Of a stretch of DNA of 64,000 nt, positions 15,823-54,189 are shown in pieces (the first letter of the stretch is position 1; every line of letters starts with the position of its first letter). The notes below the pieces were generated by a model, which was not told the DNA's origin, made no database searches, and saw only the letters and a list, made by a program, of their open reading frames with translations. Source of the DNA: a virus; the IMG/VR virus record IMGVR_UViG_3300049847_000435, positions 22,103 through 86,102 of that record; one strand, written 5' to 3'. Position numbers and translations under genes: made by a program.

Positions 15823-17384
15823 AGCAATTAGACAGCCGTCAAATCAGAGCCGCCGCCCGTCGCAACACTGCCATCTTTGCCAAGTGCTGGCGCGAAGGCG
15901 TCAACCCGGCAGCCCATCAGTATGAAATGGCGCGGCGCATCGACGGCCCCAGTCCCTACCAGGCTGACTTCTGGCCACGCGACCACGGCAAGAGCGAGAT
16001 TTTCTGTCTCTCCTACCCCCTCCGTCGCATCTGCGAAGACCCCAACCTTCGTATCCTCATCGTGCAAAAGCGCGCTACTGAAGCCGAAAAGACCTTGAGT
16101 GTCATTAAGCAGGAGCTGGAGAGCAATCACCGACTTAAAGCCTACTATGCCACCCACTGGGAAGAGACGGTGGGCTACCGCGATATCTCCAATCAGGCGG
16201 GCGCAATCCAACTCTCTGGCAAAAAAGAGGGCGCATGGCAACAATCGCGCATCTACTGCAAGCGCACGCGGCGCGGCAAAGACCCCACCGTCGAGGCTGT
16301 GGGCGTGGGCGGGGCGATCACCGGCGGGCACTACGACATCATCATCCTTGACGACATTGAGGACGATGAAAACGTCCGCACAGACGAGCGCTTACGAGGG
16401 ATGATCGAATGGTTCACCGGCACCATTATGCAGCTGCGCGAGCCGCACACCAAGATCATCATCGTCGGCACGCTCAAGACCAACAAGCAGGACATCTACA
16501 ATATCGTCCTGAATTCTCCGGTATGGGACACCTACAAAACAAGTGCAATCCTCAGTCATAAGTTGAGCGATGTGCAGATTGAGCCAGTACGCAATGCCGA
16601 TGGCGTGATTATCGATGTGAATGTCACCACGCCGAACGTCGAAACGCTCTGGCCGCAGAAATGGAACATCAAAGCACTCATGCTCGAAAAGCTCGCCAGT
16701 TTGGACGTAGCGGTCTGGATACGCGAGAAGATGAATGATCTCAGCGCGCTGGCAGGCAAGGTCTTTAAGCGCGATTTATTCCAGTGGTACAACGAAGAGG
16801 AATTCAACAATCTCCGTCGCGACCGATTGCTTGAGCAGATTATCCAGGTGTGGGATACCGCCTATGGCGAGGGTGAGGAAAGCGATTATTCGGCGTGCGT
16901 GACCGCCGCTCTGGTGCGCGGCAGCATTTACATCCTCGACGTTTACCGCGCTAAGTTGGAGTTACCGCAACTCAAAGACGCCATCGTCAGCCAGTATAAT
17001 CAGTGGCTGCCTGAACGCGTTTACATCGAAAATAAAGCCAGCGGCAAGAGCGTCTTTCAGGTACTCAAACAAGAGACGGGCGTTCCCGTCAGCGAGATCG
17101 ATCCGCAGGGGCGCGATAAGCTCAGCCGGGCACGTTCCACGACTGTCTACATCGAGAATCGGCGCGTTTATCTGCGCTCTGGTGCGCTCTGGCTAGATGG
17201 GTTCCTGGGCGAGTTGACGATGTTCCCTGAGTCCGAGCATGACGACCAGGTAGACGCGTTCGTGTACGCGGTGTTGGCTTTGCTCCTTAGCGGCATAGTC
17301 ACATTTCATGATATTCAGAGTGGCGGCGGCAGTGAGAGATCGCCGCGTGCAAGTGAGTGGATGAGGATTTTGCAGGCAAAGTAG
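15819..17384 (+). CDS. terL: terminase large subunit
   Basis: PRDHGKS Walker A, IILDDIED, WDTA...SDYSA, IENKASG, HDDQVDA. Confidence 0.93.
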   Translation: MKQLDSRQIRAAARRNTAIFAKCWREGVNPAAHQYEMARRIDGPSPYQADFWPRDHGKSEIFCLSYPLRRICEDPNLRILIVQKRATEAEKTLSVIKQELESNHRLKAYYATHWEETVGYRDISNQAGAIQLSGKKEGAWQQSRIYCKRTRRGKDPTVEAVGVGGAITGGHYDIIILDDIEDDENVRTDERLRGMIEWFTGTIMQLREPHTKIIIVGTLKTNKQDIYNIVLNSPVWDTYKTSAILSHKLSDVQIEPVRNADGVIIDVNVTTPNVETLWPQKWNIKALMLEKLASLDVAVWIREKMNDLSALAGKVFKRDLFQWYNEEEFNNLRRDRLLEQIIQVWDTAYGEGEESDYSACVTAALVRGSIYILDVYRAKLELPQLKDAIVSQYNQWLPERVYIENKASGKSVFQVLKQETGVPVSEIDPQGRDKLSRARSTTVYIENRRVYLRSGALWLDGFLGELTMFPESEHDDQVDAFVYAVLALLLSGIVTFHDIQSGGGSERSPRASEWMRILQAK

Positions 17385-17458
17385 ATTGAGCTATTATTGC
17401 CTAGCAGCTCGTTGAGATTTATTTCTAGCGGGCTTTTCCATATTCTTTAGCTTAACAA

Positions 17459-17602
17459 GAGTACGAAAGAGTAATCGTTCGCAGCGTTATCTTTCGTACT
17501 CAGCGAATACCCACCACGAAAATGGCTAGACTCAATTGAGTCTAGCCATTTTCGTGGTAAATTTTACCTAAAAGATAACGCGACCAACGAAACTCTTTTA
17601 GG
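17459..17602. repeat. 46-bp perfect palindrome (17513-17558) flanked by two mirror-image hairpins
   Basis: ACCACGAAAATGGCTAGACTCAA|TTGAGTCTAGCCATTTTCGTGGT; hairpins 17459-17501 and 17567-17602. Confidence 0.9.
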
Positions 17603-17733
17603 CGCTAACTGAACTTCGGTGCAGGGATCGACTCTCTTGAGAATTCACGAACGAAACACAGGTATTATGCCACATTGCCGAGTGAAATGAAAATGAAGAT
17701 GGACCGTTCGATCTCTAGGATTGACGATGCGTA

Positions 17734-17786
17734 ATGTGATCAACACCACATATTAAGTATTTTTAAAAAAGTACACTATAAATACA
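17734..17786 (+). promoter_or_regulatory. Phage promoter motif copy 2
   Basis: ATGTG-N8-CACAT-N20-TACACTATAAATACA. Confidence 0.6.
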
Positions 17787-17824
17787 TGTTTTCGTGAAAA
17801 TTCTTTTGCACGCGGAGAACAACC

Positions 17825-17938
17825 GTGATCACCTATCTCGTTATCCTGCTTGTCGGTATCGCTATTGGCGTGAGTGCGACGCTAATCAGCGCTGCGCTTT
17901 TTGCGTCGAGCAGGGCAAGCGGGCGTGAGGGCGATTAA
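17825..17938 (+). CDS. 37-aa single-TM peptide
   Basis: GGAGA RBS, hydrophobic helix; read manually. Confidence 0.45.
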   Translation: MITYLVILLVGIAIGVSATLISAALFASSRASGREGD

Positions 17939-18055
17939 GCGACAGAGCTTCGCAAGTAATCTCAATTAGCATCGGAGGCGAGATAGGAAAACGATCATTT
18001 AACTTTTCTGGAAGCGGCGCAACGCAATCGAATCGCATCGTCTGCCGTTGCGGAT

Positions 18056-18325
18056 GTGTTTGAGATGCTTGATAAAGAAGATGTGAGTCTCATCGTTCGC
18101 GCCCGTCAGGCAGCAATAGAATTATGGAAAATAAAACAGCGTGATGGAGTTGTGCCGCCGAGAGAATTGAGCAGTGTAGCTACATCCTACAGCGTAACAA
18201 CTTTTGCAATTATGCGGGAGCTAGAACGGATGGGATGTCTAGCAAGCGGTACGGCAATGGCGATTGAAAAACGTTGTTTCGGTAATAACAACGTTTTTCA
18301 ATCGAAGGAAAATAACCATGAATGA
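18056..18325 (+). CDS. hypothetical protein (possible winged HTH)
   Basis: 89-aa ORF. Confidence 0.45.
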   Translation: MFEMLDKEDVSLIVRARQAAIELWKIKQRDGVVPPRELSSVATSYSVTTFAIMRELERMGCLASGTAMAIEKRCFGNNNVFQSKENNHE

Positions 18326-21479: not shown

Positions 21480-22878
21480 ACACCAGGAGCCAGCCATAGC
21501 AAAGCTCATTCGCTCGCGCATCGGCGCGCTCTTTATGGAGCAAGGCACCGGCAAGACGCGTACAGCGATTGAAATGGCACACATCCGGCAGGCAAAGATC
21601 GACTGCGTGGTCTGGTTTTGCCCGGTCTCCTGCAAAGAGACCATTGCCCACGAGATCATCAAGCACACCGACGCCAGCGAGCCAGACATCCACGTTTTCA
21701 ACGACAAGACCCGGCAGGGACATACCCCCAAAGCCTTTTGGTATGTCGTCGGTATTGAATCGGTGTCATCCAGCAACCGCGTCGTGCTGGCCGTCAACGA
21801 CCTCATCACCGAAAATACCTATGTAATCCTGGACGAGTCCACCTACATCAAAAATCATCGCAGTCGCCGCACTAAACGCATTACGCTCATGGCAGAGCGC
21901 TGCCGTTACCGAACGCTGCTTACCGGCACGCCCATCACAGAGGGTGTGGTCGATCTCTTTGCCCAGATGAAGTTTTTGTCGCCCAAAATCCTGGGCTACA
22001 ACAGTTTTTACAGCTTTGCTCGCAACCATCTGGAGTATCACCCAGACAGGAAAGGGTTGATTGTGCGTAGCCACAACACTGCCTACATTGCTAGCAAAAT
22101 CCACCCCTACACCTACCAGGTGACGAAGAGGGAATGCCTCGATCTACCCAGCAAGCTTTACGACGCTCGCTACTTCAGCATGAGCGACCAGCAGCGTTGG
22201 GCATACGAAGAGGCGAAAGAGGAGATACTGTCGGAGTTGTATGATGCGAAGTTTCCTGAGTACGTGATCTTTCGCCTCTTCACGGTGCTGCAGCAGATTA
22301 CCTGCGGATTTTGGAATCGCCGCCAGGAGGACGGCACCTATCGCCTGCACACCTATCCTCACATACGGCTAGACATGCTCGCAGACACCATCGCCAGCGC
22401 GCCGAAAGGTGAAAAATATATCATCTGGACGAAGTACCGATACGACATCGACCAGATCGGCACGCTACTGGGGCAGGAATACGGACCCGGCAGCGCAGCG
22501 TTTTTCTATGGCGACCTGAGCGAGAAAGCTCGCAACGAAGAATTGGTGAAGTTTCGCCAGAAAGACGGGGCGCGTTTCCTCGTCGCCACCACCCAGTGTG
22601 GCGGGCATGGCTTGACGCTCAACGAGGCGCATCGCGTCATCTTCTACAGCAACGAATTTAAATACGCCAACCGCGTGCAGGCAGAGGATCGCAATCACCG
22701 CATCGGGCAGGGCGAGTCCGTGCTCTATACTGACCTCATCTGCCGCAAGAGCATCGACGAGCGCATCGAGCAAGCCATCGCCAAAAAAGAAAGCGCCGTT
22801 CACGCCTTCAAACGTGAAGTTGACCGGGTGAAGGACAAAAGCAAAAAAGAAGTGGCGGAATTAATCAAATCTCTTTGA
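21454..22878 (+). CDS. SNF2-family (SF2) helicase
   Basis: MEQGTGKT, ILDES, LLTGTP, GGHGLTL, QAEDRNHRIGQ. Confidence 0.92.
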   Translation: MNLRTTLLKHQEPAIAKLIRSRIGALFMEQGTGKTRTAIEMAHIRQAKIDCVVWFCPVSCKETIAHEIIKHTDASEPDIHVFNDKTRQGHTPKAFWYVVGIESVSSSNRVVLAVNDLITENTYVILDESTYIKNHRSRRTKRITLMAERCRYRTLLTGTPITEGVVDLFAQMKFLSPKILGYNSFYSFARNHLEYHPDRKGLIVRSHNTAYIASKIHPYTYQVTKRECLDLPSKLYDARYFSMSDQQRWAYEEAKEEILSELYDAKFPEYVIFRLFTVLQQITCGFWNRRQEDGTYRLHTYPHIRLDMLADTIASAPKGEKYIIWTKYRYDIDQIGTLLGQEYGPGSAAFFYGDLSEKARNEELVKFRQKDGARFLVATTQCGGHGLTLNEAHRVIFYSNEFKYANRVQAEDRNHRIGQGESVLYTDLICRKSIDERIEQAIAKKESAVHAFKREVDRVKDKSKKEVAELIKSL

Positions 22879-48803: not shown

Positions 48804-49616
48804 TTACCTTTGAACCATGTACAGCAATAGGCTGGCGATGCCAACCGCGGCAATGAATGATGCTCCAAATATAGCCCACAAAAGCGCTTTATTATCCCTC
48901 TGTGGTGTTGCGTGCTCTGCCCGAAAAATGGTGAGCATCGGCTTTATTTCGTTCCTGACGCTCTCTTCGATGTCGGCAACCCTCGCCTCTAGTATCGCAT
49001 GGCGTTGGATGATTCCGATCTCACCTAGTCTCCCGCCGCCGATTGATCGCTCCAACGCGTCGAGTCTCTGTACAACTTCGTCGCCGCGTCTCACGATTAC
49101 GTTTTTACCTGGCAGGTAGCGAAACCTTGACCCTGTCGGGTCTACCCTGTCCCTTGCCTCTTTGTAGGAGTGCGTCTCGCTTGAGCCCAGAACTGAGTAG
49201 AACATCTCGGAAAAGTCAATCGCATCGTCATTTTCGATAGCCGAAATGGTGAAGATGCAATCTGACTCGCATCGGCTGGCGATGAGTTCGGCGACCTTTT
49301 CAGAGGAACACGTGTTGAAAAAGACGAGTTCTGGCTTCCCTGTCTGGATATACATCACGATCATATCCAGCGGGATGATCTCATTACTCGCAACAAAGCC
49401 ATCTTCGCACAAGTGCCCCGCAAAGTGGATGATATTGAAAGGTTTTTCGTCAAGGATTGCGCGCAGGATGTCTTGTCTGCGCACCGGCTCGGATAGTTCG
49501 CGTGTTGAGTTGTGCGCCGCAATTGCAACAACTTCGCGCTGCAATTGCGGCAATGGCTCAAAGCCAGGCACATCCGTTATCGAGACCTTGACGATCAACA
49601 CTCTCAAGCTTTCCAT
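48804..49616 (-). CDS. CHAT (caspase-like) domain protein with coiled coil and C-terminal TM
   Basis: LPQLQRE, IIHFAGH, LVFFNTC (His-Cys dyad), AIDFSEMFY. Confidence 0.75.
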   Translation of the reverse strand: MESLRVLIVKVSITDVPGFEPLPQLQREVVAIAAHNSTRELSEPVRRQDILRAILDEKPFNIIHFAGHLCEDGFVASNEIIPLDMIVMYIQTGKPELVFFNTCSSEKVAELIASRCESDCIFTISAIENDDAIDFSEMFYSVLGSSETHSYKEARDRVDPTGSRFRYLPGKNVIVRRGDEVVQRLDALERSIGGGRLGEIGIIQRHAILEARVADIEESVRNEIKPMLTIFRAEHATPQRDNKALLWAIFGASFIAAVGIASLLLYMVQR

Positions 49617-49748
49617 ACATCTCCCCGACTATTATTAATGGCAGACAAAATCTTAAAGGCTCGTCGAAGAGTTCTCCGCGGTAAAGCGAATTTGTATGTT
49701 TATCTCCATCCTTCGTCAATGCTATTTAGCGAGAAACCGACTACGGAC

Positions 49749-50093
49749 TCAGTCTTTGGTTTTGCTTTCCCGTAGAAGTGCTTGTCCTACCGCAACTACT
49801 TGTTCGTTTCCAGACAACGCAACGCGGCACTCGTGATAATAAGCGCCAGCGGGCAAGGAGAGCGAGTCGACTTTAGCGATGGTGATGCGAACTACGTCGT
49901 TCACACCAGACCCGTTCACTAGAGTCGCCCCGCTCCCCGTGCCCTTCGTCAGTAGACGGGCACTAGATGACCATAGTCCCCATTCCACCGTGGCGCCGGT
50001 AAGGTTTTTAGGGGCACCCTCGTCGGTTACGTAGAAGTCTACTTGCTCATCTTCGCCTTGATAGAATGTGAAGTTTTGCTTTTCTGACGCCAT
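49749..50093 (-). CDS. virion-associated Ig/BppU-like small protein
   Basis: FYQGED...NLTGATV...LPAGAYYHE pattern. Confidence 0.6.
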   Translation of the reverse strand: MASEKQNFTFYQGEDEQVDFYVTDEGAPKNLTGATVEWGLWSSSARLLTKGTGSGATLVNGSGVNDVVRITIAKVDSLSLPAGAYYHECRVALSGNEQVVAVGQALLRESKTKD

Positions 50094-50167
50094 TACTGCA
50101 CCTCGTTATTTCTCGATCTTAACACTTTTGAATTTACATACGACTTGACATTTGATATAATTAGCCT

Positions 50168-50743
50168 ATGGCAAACAAACGAACGGAGTTAATCACAAAG
50201 CAGTGCTTGGCATGTGGAAATGATTTTAATACATGTCCACCTGGGAAATCTAGCCGTATATGCAGAGCTAAGTACGATCAAGTTTTCTGCTCCAACGCTT
50301 GCAGTTGTAAATCCAGATACAGAAGCGGTATTGACTGTAACGGATTATCAGAAGTAGATGCCGCATACATTGCCGGTTTTCTTGATGGTGAAGGATCGAT
50401 AATGATAATCGGTAGAGCCGACGCATTTATGATACGTGTTTCATTCGCCAACACTAAACGGAATGTATTGGAATGGATTAGAGAGAAGACGGGTGCAGGG
50501 AATATCACTGAAAAATCCAGAGATAATCCGAATCACGCTACTTCGTATATTCTTCTAATCAATTCAAATGCGGCATTCACCCTACTTCAAAAGATTTCAA
50601 AATATCTTATCATCAAGAAGATTCAGTCCGAACTTGCTATCGATTTCTTTGGCAAACTGCGCACCCCCAGACTTAAGTCGGATAGGGAGTGGCAGTCTAC
50701 CGAAAGAGACAGAATGAAAGAACTGAATCGACGTGGCGGGTAA
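50168..50743 (+). CDS. free-standing LAGLIDADG homing endonuclease with N-terminal Zn finger
   Basis: AYIAGFLDGEGSI, YLIIKK.Q; CLAC/FCSNAC; antisense to the late operon, TTGACA...ATAAT upstream. Confidence 0.88.
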   Translation: MANKRTELITKQCLACGNDFNTCPPGKSSRICRAKYDQVFCSNACSCKSRYRSGIDCNGLSEVDAAYIAGFLDGEGSIMIIGRADAFMIRVSFANTKRNVLEWIREKTGAGNITEKSRDNPNHATSYILLINSNAAFTLLQKISKYLIIKKIQSELAIDFFGKLRTPRLKSDREWQSTERDRMKELNRRGG

Positions 50744-50746
50744 ATT

Positions 50747-51609
50747 CTAGCCACCACTCGTAAACGTGAGATCGTAGGTAAACTGTCGTTCTGTTACCAC
50801 CCATTCGGGCGGGCTGGTCATTTCTGCCAGCCTCTTACAGTTCGTTTCCTGTAAGTCCAGACTATCGCACCACCCCATAGGGTGTTTCCCCGCTTAGTCG
50901 TTCAGGCTGCACAGGCTTGCACCTTGCTTGCCCCCTGTTGGCATCACAGCTTCCAAGTCAATCAGAGGAAATTATTCGATGCGGATTACGCCGCAAAGCC
51001 ACAAAAGTTTATGGAATCAGCCGAAGCTACGTTAATCGCAGAGAACAAAGAACGATCCAATAATGTCCCACCGCCCGTCGCCGCTTGGCTAAAGATGCCA
51101 TGCTCGGTGATGGCAGCAGATGCATCAAAAGTCACGGTGCCGACCGAACGCAGAATGTTTGCGGACGGCTGCGTCTTCGTCCCTGTTGCACGCGTATTGT
51201 CGGGATTTAATGCGGTTGTGCTTTCCGTAACAAGCGCAGTTTGCGCCGCCGATTCAGCAGTGCCACCCGTGCCCACTCCATGATAGTTCAGAGTTGTAAT
51301 GTCTGTCGTGCTATTGTCCATATCATCAACAATAAAAGCCACGCCAGCATCGGTCACGACTCGGTAACAGACCGTGCCGTAATCGATCCACTCGCCATTT
51401 GCCTTTCGCACACGGATTGACAATGACGATACGACGGTTGGAATCTCTGTCAGGCGAGAAAAAGCCCACGCCAAATGCCAAAAAAGCCAACCCTTGATAA
51501 ATCCCCATCGTGCTACATTTCTCAACTTCCACGCCAGGGGAGCATCCGTCACTCCTTTGATTAGTTTTGCGCTGAGTGAACCACCTAAGCTGCTCGTACC
51601 ACCTACCAT
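50747..51609 (-). CDS. virion-module protein split by a group I intron (exon 1 51609-51011, exon 2 50786-50747)
   Basis: Splicing joins ...ASADS-I-QFTYDLTFTSGG*, a natural ending after AITEHGIF...TLLDRSLFSAINV. Confidence 0.85.
50787..51010 (-). ncRNA. group I self-splicing intron (224 nt, no ORF)
   Basis: 5' exon ends in U paired to G in P1 (CCAU/GUGG), P3 UUUCCUC/GGGGAAA, P7 GACUA/UAGUC, terminal G. Confidence 0.85.
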
Positions 51610-51630
51610 AAAACCTCCAGAACTGAATTG

Positions 51631-54189
51631 TCACAATTCGCCATCAAGTTTCTTAGTGGACGAGAATAGCCCACTAAGAATACTTTTAGAATCGTGAAAC
51701 TTACCAATAAGTGTGGTTTTCGCCCACGACCCCGACAATTTTGCCTTTCCGATAAACGTACCCAAACCAGAGAACAATCCAACGAGAATCGCCGACGTAG
51801 AGACGTATCCAGACAGGCGCATTGAAACGCTTTTATTGATAGCGCCACCAGTAGAAATCACCCCACTAAGAGCGCGCATAAAAACCCTAATTAACAGAAG
51901 TCCGCCAGCGATGGAGATATTGGCGGATAGCGACCGTATAGCCATCCTCGCTTGATCGCCAGACGAATTAATCAAACCCGCGAAAGTAGTAACTGTTCGC
52001 TTCACTACACTTCCACTCGTGACAATACTGGCAGATAATCCGCTCGCGGTACTTTTCGTTATCGATCCAGTCGTTCCAATTAATCCAGATAGCAGAACGA
52101 GGATAGAGCGAATTGCATTTAAAACGCCAGAGGTAGAGACGGAACCGACCAGTGCTCTTCTTACCTGTTTAACGATTGTCGCCGTTAGTGCAATTGATGC
52201 GGTCAACGTGGTAGCCATTCGCTTAACTACCGCGCCACTCGTAGCAACTGAACCGCTCAACAGCCGCACAAAAACACGAATAGCTGATACAGTTGCCGAT
52301 GATGTGATTGAGCCAAGTAACGATTTGTATATTTGCTTGATTACCGTGCCACTTGCTGCGACCGTGCCACTGAGCGAGCGAGCAAAGCTAATCGTTCTCG
52401 ACAACGCTCCGCCTGTGGCAATCGTCGCCGCCAAACTACGCCATGTTTGTTTTACAACCGTGCCGCCTGTTGTAACCGTGCCACTGAGTGAGCGTAAAAA
52501 TGTCTTTAGCGCCGCCGCCGTGCCACTCGTAGTAATCGAACCGCTAAGAGTTCTCGCTAACAGCTTTATAGCTGTGCCACTGGTAGCAATTGAACCTTGC
52601 AATGCTCGATATGTAGAGCGTGTTAGTGCCCCCGATGTCGTTGCTGTGCCTGCCAGTAATTTAATAAATGTGCGAACAGCGGAAAGCGCACCACTGGTAG
52701 AAATAGAGCCACCAAGCACCTTCAATGTAGCCTTGATAAGCGATGCGCTTGTTGCTAGTGACGCCGCAAGCCCCTTTCGTGTGCTTTTGATTAATGCGCC
52801 TGCGGTAGTAGCTGTACCCGATAAAATCCTAGCTATAACTCTCTGTAACGATCCAGCCAATGCAACTGTACCGCCGACTACTTTCAGCGCCGATCTGGTA
52901 ATTGATGCGCTTGTTGTGACTGTACCTGTAACAGATTTTCTAGCCATGCGAACAAGCGAACCGCTTGACGTAATCCCACCCGATACCAAGCGTCCAAACT
53001 GCCTGAGAGCCGTACCGCTTGTTGTAATTGCACCACTTAACAGCTTAGAGGTAGATTTTATGACGGTTGCCGTTGGCGTTAATGAGCCAGCGATAGCCTT
53101 TCCCGCTCTACGAACCAGCGCACCGCCTGACGACAGCGAACCGGAAACCACTTTCAATGTTCGTATCGTTGCTGCGCCACTGCTCGCTATGGAACCGGAT
53201 AGCGAGCGAATAACCAGTCTCAATCCAGACAATGTTGCTGCTGATGTAATCGAACCAGACAATGAACGAAGCGTCCTTTTCAACAAAGCTCCGCTGGTTG
53301 TGGAGGTTCCCGATAATGCACGTGATATTGATTTAATCAGCGCCCCGCCTGTTGTCGCAGTGCCGGATAAGGAACGATAAATCGCCTTAATCAATCCACC
53401 GGCGGGAGTCATCCCGCCGGTCTTGGATGTTGATGTTTGTTTTACTGGTACGCCAGCAGGAGTCATACCAGCAGTTTTAGATGTCGATGTTTTCTTGACG
53501 GGAGCGCCAGCGGGAGTCATTCCGCCTGATAAAGATAGTAGATTCGCATTACTACCGCTCGCCAACATCGGCAATAAGTAAGGCGACCATGCAATAGGTG
53601 GGCTAGATTCCTCCCACCCAACTGTACCTGTTGCCGTCCAGAGATTCATCGTTCCCGAATCGATCAGATGGTCGCCTGGATTGCCAGCGTGCCATGACAG
53701 CAAATCTACAGTATTGATTGGTACAACGAATTGCATTTCGGCTGTGATGTCATCAGCATTCATCGCTTTATTGAAGACTTTGAAAGCTTCGCCATAAGCG
53801 CTAACATTTTCGCCGTCGTTTGTATTTCCGATAAACAACTTTTGTGCTGCCGCTGTGCCTGACGGATTGCCAGTGACTACAAGCTGACCATTCAGCCAAC
53901 CTTCCATCTGTCCAGCACCGGAGCCACGGCATACTAATGCCATGTGATACCAGCGACCTACTACTAGGTTGAATGATGCCGAAGCACTGCCCGAACTAAA
54001 CACCTTAAAATTTAATGCAGTGTTCGTGTATAGTTCAATGTATGCGCCGGTCGTGTTACCGAAGCTGAAAAAAGCACCGTTCGCCCCAGGGGTAGCGGGC
54101 AACATGAACCATCCCATCATCGTAAAATTGTAGATGGCTGGTAAATTTGTTGTTCTGCTTAGACTGGATGAACTGAATCTGTATGCCAT
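51631..54189 (-). CDS. LamG/concanavalin-like domain + long basic ~20-aa repeat protein
   Basis: FTMMGWF..WYHMALV..WLNGQ; repeats (K/R)xLSG(S/T)xxTSGxL. Confidence 0.75.
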   Translation of the reverse strand: MAYRFSSSSLSRTTNLPAIYNFTMMGWFMLPATPGANGAFFSFGNTTGAYIELYTNTALNFKVFSSGSASASFNLVVGRWYHMALVCRGSGAGQMEGWLNGQLVVTGNPSGTAAAQKLFIGNTNDGENVSAYGEAFKVFNKAMNADDITAEMQFVVPINTVDLLSWHAGNPGDHLIDSGTMNLWTATGTVGWEESSPPIAWSPYLLPMLASGSNANLLSLSGGMTPAGAPVKKTSTSKTAGMTPAGVPVKQTSTSKTGGMTPAGGLIKAIYRSLSGTATTGGALIKSISRALSGTSTTSGALLKRTLRSLSGSITSAATLSGLRLVIRSLSGSIASSGAATIRTLKVVSGSLSSGGALVRRAGKAIAGSLTPTATVIKSTSKLLSGAITTSGTALRQFGRLVSGGITSSGSLVRMARKSVTGTVTTSASITRSALKVVGGTVALAGSLQRVIARILSGTATTAGALIKSTRKGLAASLATSASLIKATLKVLGGSISTSGALSAVRTFIKLLAGTATTSGALTRSTYRALQGSIATSGTAIKLLARTLSGSITTSGTAAALKTFLRSLSGTVTTGGTVVKQTWRSLAATIATGGALSRTISFARSLSGTVAASGTVIKQIYKSLLGSITSSATVSAIRVFVRLLSGSVATSGAVVKRMATTLTASIALTATIVKQVRRALVGSVSTSGVLNAIRSILVLLSGLIGTTGSITKSTASGLSASIVTSGSVVKRTVTTFAGLINSSGDQARMAIRSLSANISIAGGLLLIRVFMRALSGVISTGGAINKSVSMRLSGYVSTSAILVGLFSGLGTFIGKAKLSGSWAKTTLIGKFHDSKSILSGLFSSTKKLDGEL

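Follow-up and report, generated by a model that had tools for sequence, protein, structure and literature searches.

We analysed a 64,000-nucleotide (nt) stretch of viral DNA (the window; positions 22,103 to 86,102 of the 86,102-nt IMG/VR virus record IMGVR_UViG_3300049847_000435), and studied a phage-like locus at positions 50168-51609. Here, a tail-fibre-like gene is interrupted by a group I intron without an open reading frame (ORF), and a free-standing gene for a LAGLIDADG homing endonuclease converges on its end. The results suggested, at a probability of about one half, that the intron and the nuclease are two selfish elements which share one conserved target in the tail-fibre-like gene and cooperate loosely, in what is called trans or 'collaborative' homing. 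Such homing had been proposed in an earlier reading of this DNA (the original prediction), and this interpretation as a whole was partly supported.

The architecture, judged by coordinates and ORFs, was exactly that of the original prediction, an ORF-less intron beside a convergent free-standing LAGLIDADG gene. The nuclease gene, coding for 191 amino acids (aa), lies on the plus strand at 50168-50743 and was recognized by Pfam, a family profile and a structural model. The host gene lies on the minus strand, where exon 1 (51011-51609, 200 codons, with the Ile-200 codon split by the intron) was assigned by homologues and fold matches, and exon 2 (50747-50786, 12 codons and the stop, encoding the last beta-strand) by homologues and the model. 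The 224-nt intron between them (50787-51010) was delimited by its splice sites, alignment and covariation. The TAA stop codon of the nuclease (50741-50743) and the stop codon of the host gene (50747-50749) are separated by 3 nt, as had been claimed. Since exon 2 runs from 50786 to 50747 and the last intron base is 50787, the distance from the nuclease stop to the 3' splice site is 43 nt, in agreement with the earlier figure of about 40 bp. The nuclease gene had also been placed opposite the whole late operon, which held for 46-54 kb, the region examined, where the ORF list puts all large ORFs on the minus strand except the 191-aa nuclease ORF.

The borders of the intron could be read from several features. 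Exon 1 ends in U (51011), and at this 5' splice site the U forms a U.G pair with the internal guide sequence in P1 (exon CCAU with intron GUGG, 50999-51014, minus strand, read from the sequence); the last base of the intron is G (50787). Excision of 51010-50787 gave a 639-nt frame of 212 codons with no internal stop, whose product aligned over its full length with the intron-less homologues P0004 and P0005 at 91% identity and had the same last 16 residues as P0004. The host gene is interrupted 40 nt before its end, inside the Ile-200 codon, and an intron-less allele assembled from sequencing run X3 (record 15) left the window's sequence exactly at 51011. The host protein had 2738 homologues at E <= 0.001, and 105 of the 120 listed carried the full ...DSIQFTY...GG-type C-terminus. 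Another 14, the window's product included, stopped in the same read-through ...CG[FL]AA and are therefore predicted to be intron-bearing as well, and P0046 was the sole one of the 120 with a different end. In the window itself, the upstream minus-strand ORF (207 aa, 51609-50986) ends ...SADSINFCGFAA, and the minus-strand ORF fragment next to the nuclease stop ends ...QFTYDLTFTSGG.

The secondary structure of the intron was examined in an alignment of 52 members, namely the window's intron, the intron of podovirus record MW202674 and 50 IMG/VR sequences. RNAalifold recovered P3, P4, P6, P8 and P9, with compensatory changes in 17 of the 23 predicted pairs. When the P7 pseudoknot was added, 95.0% of the cells were paired, a value that none of the 500 shuffles attained (mean of these 76.2%), and 20 of the 30 pairs showed changes on both sides; in a control with the partners slid by 1-3 columns, 36-47% were paired. 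P5, where the alignment was gapped, was left out of the pair scoring. The P7 pairs 154-204 and 160-199 covaried and one P7 nucleotide was bulged, and both this bulge and the helix order are as in a group I core. In the window's copy, the catalytic core with its P3/P7 pseudoknot (50859-50971, minus strand) has 25 of 25 standard pairs in P3, P4, P6, P7 and P8, and P9 is a perfect 7-bp stem. Judged by its splice sites and covariation, the ORF-less 224-nt group I intron is real, and the predicted fold indicates that it is of the self-splicing type with an intact core. No Rfam match was found at E <= 1 in 49500-52500, nor at E <= 0.01 in seven loci holding intron-family members. Because P1, the terminal G, the covarying core and the precise excision support a group I intron, we read this miss as a sensitivity gap of the library.

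The host protein had no Pfam family, no tblastn match among GenBank phages, and a match to phrog_5417, whose function is unknown. A structural model of the intron-less homologue P0004, with a predicted local distance difference test score (pLDDT) of 77, matched one chain of the tail of Haloferax tailed virus 1 (E 3.4e-05), the sole PDB match at E <= 0.001, as well as 46 BFVD entries at E <= 0.001, including predicted phage tail-fibre and tail-collar-fibre proteins. These model matches suggested that the host gene is tail-fibre-like. In the P0004 model, the insertion site (residues 200/201) falls where the last beta-strand (199-209) begins.

The nuclease exceeded the Pfam cut-offs for both PF00961 (LAGLIDADG_1; 26.7 bits against 23.1, E 1.1e-05) and PF14528 (LAGLIDADG_3; 23.0 bits against 22.5). 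Its LAGLIDADG motif (residues 66-77, AYIAGFLDGEGS) is encoded at 50363-50398 on the plus strand, and it is preceded by four cysteines, C13, C16, C41 and C45, which were invariant in a 40-sequence alignment (A3) and define a putative Zn-ribbon region (50204-50302, plus strand), modelled as two beta-hairpins and a helix. Within the motif, Glu75 was conserved in at least 90% of the 40 sequences and aligned with the Asp of the I-MsoI motif; we take this position to be that of the catalytic acidic residue. A family profile compared with the PDB matched I-MsoI (E 9e-13) and I-CreI (about 2e-11), with chains to about 1e-10, over residues 57-191. The structural model of the nuclease (pLDDT 93.0) showed an alpha-beta-beta-alpha-beta-beta-alpha fold with one motif per chain, and the top PDB matches in Foldseek were I-CreI, I-CvuI and I-MsoI at a probability of 1.00; the template modelling score for I-CreI was 0.70-0.75, normalised to the target, and sequence identity in the fold matches was 18-26%. 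By profile and model, the nuclease is a LAGLIDADG enzyme of the I-CreI/I-MsoI homodimer type with an N-terminal four-cysteine Zn ribbon. Its wider protein family is large, with 6273 representatives at E <= 0.001; the stricter limit of E <= 1e-30 leaves 41.

The nuclease gene appears to have its own near-consensus, promoter-like site (50133-50161, plus strand), consisting of TTTACA (50133), a 17-nt spacer and TATAAT, with TG before the -10 element and 11 of 12 matches. It was the best of seven such sites in 49600-51700, where shuffles had a mean of 2.9. The -35 element had been assigned to TTGACA (50145-50150), which cannot serve as such because it lies 5 nt from TATAAT (50156-50161), too close. 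The ATG of the nuclease follows the -10 hexamer by 7 nt, so the mRNA may be nearly leaderless, and there is no Shine-Dalgarno sequence in 50156-50170.

A scan of IMG/VR with the nuclease alignment returned 79 loci. At all nine loci with a nuclease at least 40% identical across most of its length (L197-L205), the gene stood directly behind the stop codon of a host-family gene. It was convergent at L197 (on the same contig as L013) and L198 and co-directional at L199/L200, L201/L202 and L203-L205; at the last three, the neighbouring gene had no BLAST match and was judged host-like from its C-terminal sequence alone. The nuclease likewise follows the host gene at L017 and L018. The host genes at L197-L206 were all intron-less, and because the nine loci abut the host gene even so, this place appears to be characteristic of the nuclease clade, whether or not an intron is present. 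Nuclease-less junctions were seen in run contigs (X2 record 1 and X9 record 20) and at L280, where the ATG of the next gene lies about 3 nt past the host stop. The nuclease is a presence/absence cassette at a fixed place, in either orientation. In the window, comparison with L280 and the run contigs puts the inserted cassette at 50094-50746 (plus strand), bounded by the next late gene (49749-50093, minus strand), an ORF of 114 aa with a PHROG match to phrog_1084. A further locus, L206 (2905-4320 of a 167,869-nt contig), holds a shorter nuclease relative with a partial match, abutting a 305-aa gene convergently; this gene shares only its C-terminal module (...VIEFPWELEIKSGG) with the host family. 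By these alignments, the nuclease seems to follow the C-terminal module, not the whole host gene.

We next compared the distribution of the two elements. The single host protein as locus query confirmed no locus, and the host-gene alignment A2 was used instead, which gave 75 IMG/VR loci with a host-gene homologue. None of them had the intron, and three had the nuclease (L013, L017 and L018). A degenerate junction pattern, applied to the metagenome collection, gave four intron-bearing alleles. In L278, the intron was 96.9% identical to the window's, and a convergent nuclease, cut by the contig end, was 79% identical in protein. In L280, the intron was 98.2% identical and there was no nuclease. 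L281 had an intron of a second subtype, about 75% identical, with a convergent nuclease of a different lineage, 48% identical in protein. L279 had an intron of the second subtype and no nuclease within 1.9 kb downstream. The survey that accompanied the original prediction thus had a mixed outcome: the nuclease occurred in excess with the intron, in two of the four intron-bearing alleles against three of the 75 intron-less loci (Fisher one-sided p = 0.018, kinship ignored), and each element was also found alone. The co-occurrence spans two nuclease lineages and two intron subtypes. Proteins from contigs of equal length point weakly to two further contigs with both elements, P0211 with P0122 (3951 nt) and P0032 with P0124 (3899 nt), and to one with the nuclease and no intron, P0086 with P0127 (7608 nt); such pairing proved correct once, for P0131 and L281 (2947 nt), and the three pairs are leads kept outside the counts. 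As to the second subtype, it occupies the same insertion site and has P1/P2 nearly like the window's, whereas its core, in which the exact 17-nt motif is missing, shares only about 75% identity with the window's.

All sampled words of the window were present in a freshwater-sediment run, which may be where it comes from. Logan contigs were compared from four runs of four studies, with evidence drawn only from the parts of the window that they cover, three of them labelled wastewater DNA or 'metagenomic RNA-Seq' and one a metatranscriptome. Contigs joining the nuclease and the intron were present in all four, among them X2 record 2 (covering 50118-51066, with 50 differences) and X9 record 21 (covering 50118-51441, with 131 differences). 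X9 record 20 lacked both elements, joining 50097 to 51272 with 315 letters between, and in runs X3 and X9 intron-less and intron-bearing contigs occurred together. A word share of 0.12, found in 23 runs, was considered as a sign of the intron alone; this was rejected, as four of them gave nuclease-plus-intron contigs at about 90-95% identity, and the other 19 enter none of the counts.

Several observations bear on whether the nuclease targets the insertion site. A codon other than Gln directly 3' of the site was found in three of five distinct nuclease-bearing intron-less alleles, namely L198 (DQIEF), L199 (DSLSS) and L201 (DSILF), compared with two of 43 nuclease-free alleles (p = 0.005). Among 228 nuclease homologues, examined as protein sequences, eight end in the tail of the host gene (...LTxxxGG): P0146, P0155, P0156, P0157, P0230, P0233, P0235 and P0251. 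In P0155 the join (...RRG/QFTYQLTCTAGG, that is ...G/QFTY, with the slash at the join) falls exactly at the insertion site; in P0251 and P0233 it falls within about a codon of the site, and in the other five about 4-5 codons further on. In our reading, these host-tail ends are the gene's original end, pushed to a position behind the nuclease, and would mark where the break occurred. No nuclease ORF with a host-like tail was present among the loci retrieved, and a degenerate pattern for the peptide common to P0155 and P0156 had no match in IMG/VR viral contigs. When 220 dyad centres were scored in the 43 nuclease-free alleles, the best lay 1 nt from the insertion site, with a mean of 5.26 of 11 matches (all centres: mean 2.85, standard deviation 0.78). 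Because of the fidelity of the nuclease to this locus, its enrichment with the intron, the changed codons and the tail-fused ORFs, the sequences hint that the nuclease cuts at or near the intron insertion site.

The history of spread was examined by comparing the intron with its surroundings. Between the window and L280, the intron was 98.2% identical, exon 2 92.5% and exon 1 69-86%, and the nuclease DNA was absent. Between the window and L278, the intron was 96.9% identical, exon 2 89.7%, exon 1 64-77%, and the 3' half of the nuclease DNA 71.5%. For L279 and L281, compared by eye, the intron was about 97% and exon 1 about 85% identical, and the similarity stopped at the host stop. Thus, co-conversion of intron and nuclease as one unit failed the test in all three comparisons, and the claim that 'both co-convert' was unsupported for the recent spread. 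Because the intron is 97-98% identical while the exons and nuclease DNA are diverged or the latter absent, the pattern of identities indicates that intron and exon 2 have recently passed from one diverged genome to another and that the nuclease was not carried along. At L280, we also observed that a mosaic boundary falls exactly at the host stop (L280 1-411 compared with window 49749-50093), the host protein being 92% and the intron 98% identical, and the product of the next gene only 46%.

The intron belongs to a larger group. A blastn search of GenBank phages gave one match, to podovirus MW202674.1, 76% identical to the intron core. In that record (16569-18084; L001 2908-3124), 'P22 coat protein' is annotated as two coding sequences with a 120-nt 'hypothetical protein' between, and the gap between them is an ORF-less intron of the same family. 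A 19-nt core motif common to the window and MW202674.1 had at least 119 exact matches in IMG/VR stretches; among the matches listed were 80 loci (L078-L157) with 69 distinct cores, none of them in the host gene family. Introns of the family that interrupt other genes were about 75% identical to the window's intron, and the core motif is single-copy in this genome. Judged by motif and alignment, the intron is a member of a very large phage group I intron family missed by Rfam 15. An 18-nt stretch of the intron's 5' end had no match in IMG/VR viral contigs, and a genome-contig scan with a guide-sequence word plus the gapped core motif gave two loci, both without host gene and nuclease. It was also observed that L095, L131, L137 and L147 (IMG/VR) apparently hold two or more family introns within one gene, and that ORFs reading into a family intron end in the core translation ...KSSLIDLEA.

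Enzymes related to the nuclease accompany this intron family. Of the 80 motif loci (695 kb), 26 had ORFs that the nuclease-family profile matched; among the 75 host-gene loci (552 kb), the profile matched only the three already known. At seven distinct loci (L080, L090, L111, L129 with its duplicate L142, L132, L134 and L156), a LAGLIDADG ORF lies inside an insertion in P6, on the antisense strand every time, and L095 and L137 have two further antisense LAGLIDADG ORFs inside neighbouring introns. More distant LAGLIDADG genes, of 28-37% identity, occur at L221, L224, L235, L239, L240 and L248, and the 3' part of an intron of the family lies no more than about 100 nt behind each of them. From the profile matches, the P6 ORFs and these neighbours, we conclude that I-CreI-like enzymes are, on sequence comparison, the usual partners of this intron family. 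Flanking antisense LAGLIDADG genes (L095, L137 and others) were also considered as free-standing partners, and this was rejected, those of L095 and L137 sitting within a neighbouring intron of the same gene.

A mechanism of collaborative homing at this locus could run as follows. The nuclease dimer would recognise the conserved ...GDSI/QFTY... coding sequence (insertion site at the slash) of intron-less alleles and make its cut at the insertion site or no more than a few bases from it. The intron, by splitting the target, would protect this genome, and a changed codon at the same spot would protect other nuclease-bearing genomes. During co-infection, the break would be repaired from the intron-bearing genome, and repair would copy the intron with the 40-nt exon 2, and the 650-nt nuclease cassette only sometimes. 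The intron would have spread further and more recently than the nuclease because of this occasional copying.

A number of points weigh against cooperation between the two elements. The association and site statistics are built on small counts of related sequences. The nuclease is missing from the intron-bearing L280 and L279, and all four combinations of intron and nuclease occur. Nuclease DNA 43 nt from an intron 96.9% identical between the window and L278 is only 71.5% identical in its 3' half. L013/L197 has the nuclease, no intron, and a site only a few positions off the window's joined exons, and the site variant of L017/L018 recurs in L025 and L053, which have no nuclease. A search for tail remnants behind the co-directional nucleases L017, L199, L201 and L203 gave only chance matches of 7-9 nt. 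The dyad gives a weak signal, with the second-best centre, at -45, scoring 5.14. Contigs from the RNA-labelled runs X9 and X21, which may derive from DNA, were unspliced, and the contigs of the four runs included no spliced RNA joint.

The alternative that survives best, possible in our view and yet rather unlikely, is that the two elements are independent neighbours at a hot spot. The nuclease would then home to the junction of the host stop (...SGG-stop) and the next gene, where its own insertion protects, and the intron would have arrived otherwise, by an intron-encoded nuclease since lost ('HEG turnover', of the homing endonuclease gene), by the nuclease of another phage, or by reverse splicing. 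Such independence would fit the occurrence of all four combinations; the original prediction would have given way to independent distribution, and intron-only, nuclease-only and double-negative alleles were indeed all found, so that in part the distribution is independent. It would also fit L013, where the nuclease coexists with an almost unchanged insertion site, and the near-identity of the intron across genomes whose nuclease is diverged or absent. The loss of an internal ORF is plausible because other family introns carry their own LAGLIDADG ORFs in P6 (the seven distinct loci above), and HEG turnover has been proposed as the origin of such loci (PMC10448857; this and the other articles cited here by PMC number are used for the part of their text available to us). 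However, independence leaves three things unexplained: the excess of changed codons (3/5 against 2/43), the nucleases whose ORFs join the host tail at the site or up to about five codons beyond it, and the enrichment of 2/4 against 3/75 across two nuclease lineages and two intron subtypes.

It is highly improbable that the LAGLIDADG protein is mainly a trans-acting maturase, or domesticated, rather than an active homing nuclease. LAGLIDADG maturases do exist, the protein of a Thermotoga 23S intron being cited (PMC3984707), and the nuclease gene here adjoins an intron. However, at least 90% of the 40 aligned homologues retain the acidic residue of the motif, most close relatives of the nuclease adjoin intron-less genes, a presence/absence cassette in either orientation behaves like a mobile element, and L279 and L280 have the 224-nt family intron without the protein. 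Least credible of all is an old, vertically inherited and immobile intron kept similar by structural constraint only: the core helices are plainly constrained, but identity is 97-98% over all 224 nt, loops included, compared with about 75% for members in other genes, the intron-less P0209 and P0210 share a 90% cluster with the intron-bearing P0021, intron-less and intron-bearing contigs occur together in X3 and X9, and intron divergence is not proportional to exon divergence.

Loose cooperation at one target can be compared with known systems. Collaborative or trans homing has been described for 'two different phages' (PMC3984707). In one system, cyanophage S-PM2, an ORF-less psbA group I intron is paired with the free-standing F-CphI (Zeng, Bonocora and Shub 2009, cited in PMC3984707). 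In S-PM2 as in the window, the intron insertion site is the proposed nuclease target. F-CphI has an Endo VII-type motif (PMC6083498), whereas the window's enzyme is an I-CreI-like LAGLIDADG protein with a Zn ribbon. Unlike S-PM2 psbA, the window's nuclease is convergent and abuts the stop codon, its host gene is tail-fibre-like, and the system is known here from sequence alone.

Bonocora and Shub are said to have described in 2009, in the T7-like phages T3 and phiI, a DNA-polymerase intron with an adjacent free-standing HNH gene. There, as proposed for the window, one conserved site is the meeting point of an ORF-less intron and a free-standing nuclease. Such a pairing on one site has been proposed as a route to composite mobile introns. 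The T7-like phages differ in nuclease family and host gene, and the window's intron family has members with antisense LAGLIDADG ORFs in P6. The T7-like arrangement of intron and adjacent nuclease is also mentioned in PMC10448857. In phage T4, mobE promotes trans homing of the defunct I-TevIII intron (PMC2790892). A neighbouring free-standing nuclease thus mobilises an intron in trans in T4, as proposed for the window; mobE belongs to the HNH enzymes and the I-TevIII intron retains the ORF of a defunct nuclease, while the window's intron is ORF-less. In ICP1, a terminase intron has an adjacent T5orf172 nuclease gene; trans homing was suggested for this intron, and HEG turnover was raised as an alternative (PMC10448857). 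Both ICP1 and the window have a nuclease gene beside, not inside, an intron of a phage structural module; the ICP1 nuclease is GIY-YIG-like.

I-CreI-type enzymes are homodimers with pseudo-palindromic sites of about 22 bp and a 4-nt central cut. The window's enzyme shares with I-CreI and I-MsoI (PDB 1bp7 and 1m5x) a common fold, a single motif in each chain and an acidic residue for metal binding. Unlike the window's enzyme, these two are intron-encoded in algal 23S rDNA and have no N-terminal Zn ribbon. Mobile endonuclease ORFs of fungal mitochondria enter the 3' end of a host gene and bring a substitute end, and the displaced original stays behind. A similar process would explain the eight tail-ended nuclease homologues, although no remnant was found in the four co-directional loci. 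No LAGLIDADG enzyme was named in a collaborative-homing role in the available parts of PMC3984707, PMC2790892 and PMC10448857, and a full-text literature search for free-standing LAGLIDADG enzymes in phage gave one chloroplast paper only.

Upstream of the host gene, an 852-aa protein (51631-54189, minus strand) consists mostly of dozens of degenerate repeats of about 20 aa (...SLSG..TTSGAL.K...), and it had no Pfam or PHROG match.

According to the partial sources available, collaborative homing is the leading idea on where mobile group I introns come from and rests on a handful of phage systems. The locus adds to it the best-understood and most engineerable nuclease family and a structural, tail-fibre-like host gene, and it exposes an abundant intron family overlooked by standard annotation. 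All four allele states coexist in the same samples, that is, in natural populations, and therefore homing, immunity and the length of the co-conversion tract are directly testable. More tentatively, and we think it unlikely in its full breadth, the locus could belong to a broader partnership, so far undescribed, which links I-CreI-like LAGLIDADG enzymes in environmental phages with this very large, Rfam-invisible group I intron family. One nuclease clade may then be seen in four states, convergent, co-directional, fused to the displaced tail at the cut site, and beside an intron, and the intron may be an exchangeable immunity device for nuclease-bearing genomes, with point mutation at the same codon as the alternative. 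If true, such a partnership would show natural intermediates of free-standing nucleases and ORF-less introns merging into composite mobile introns.

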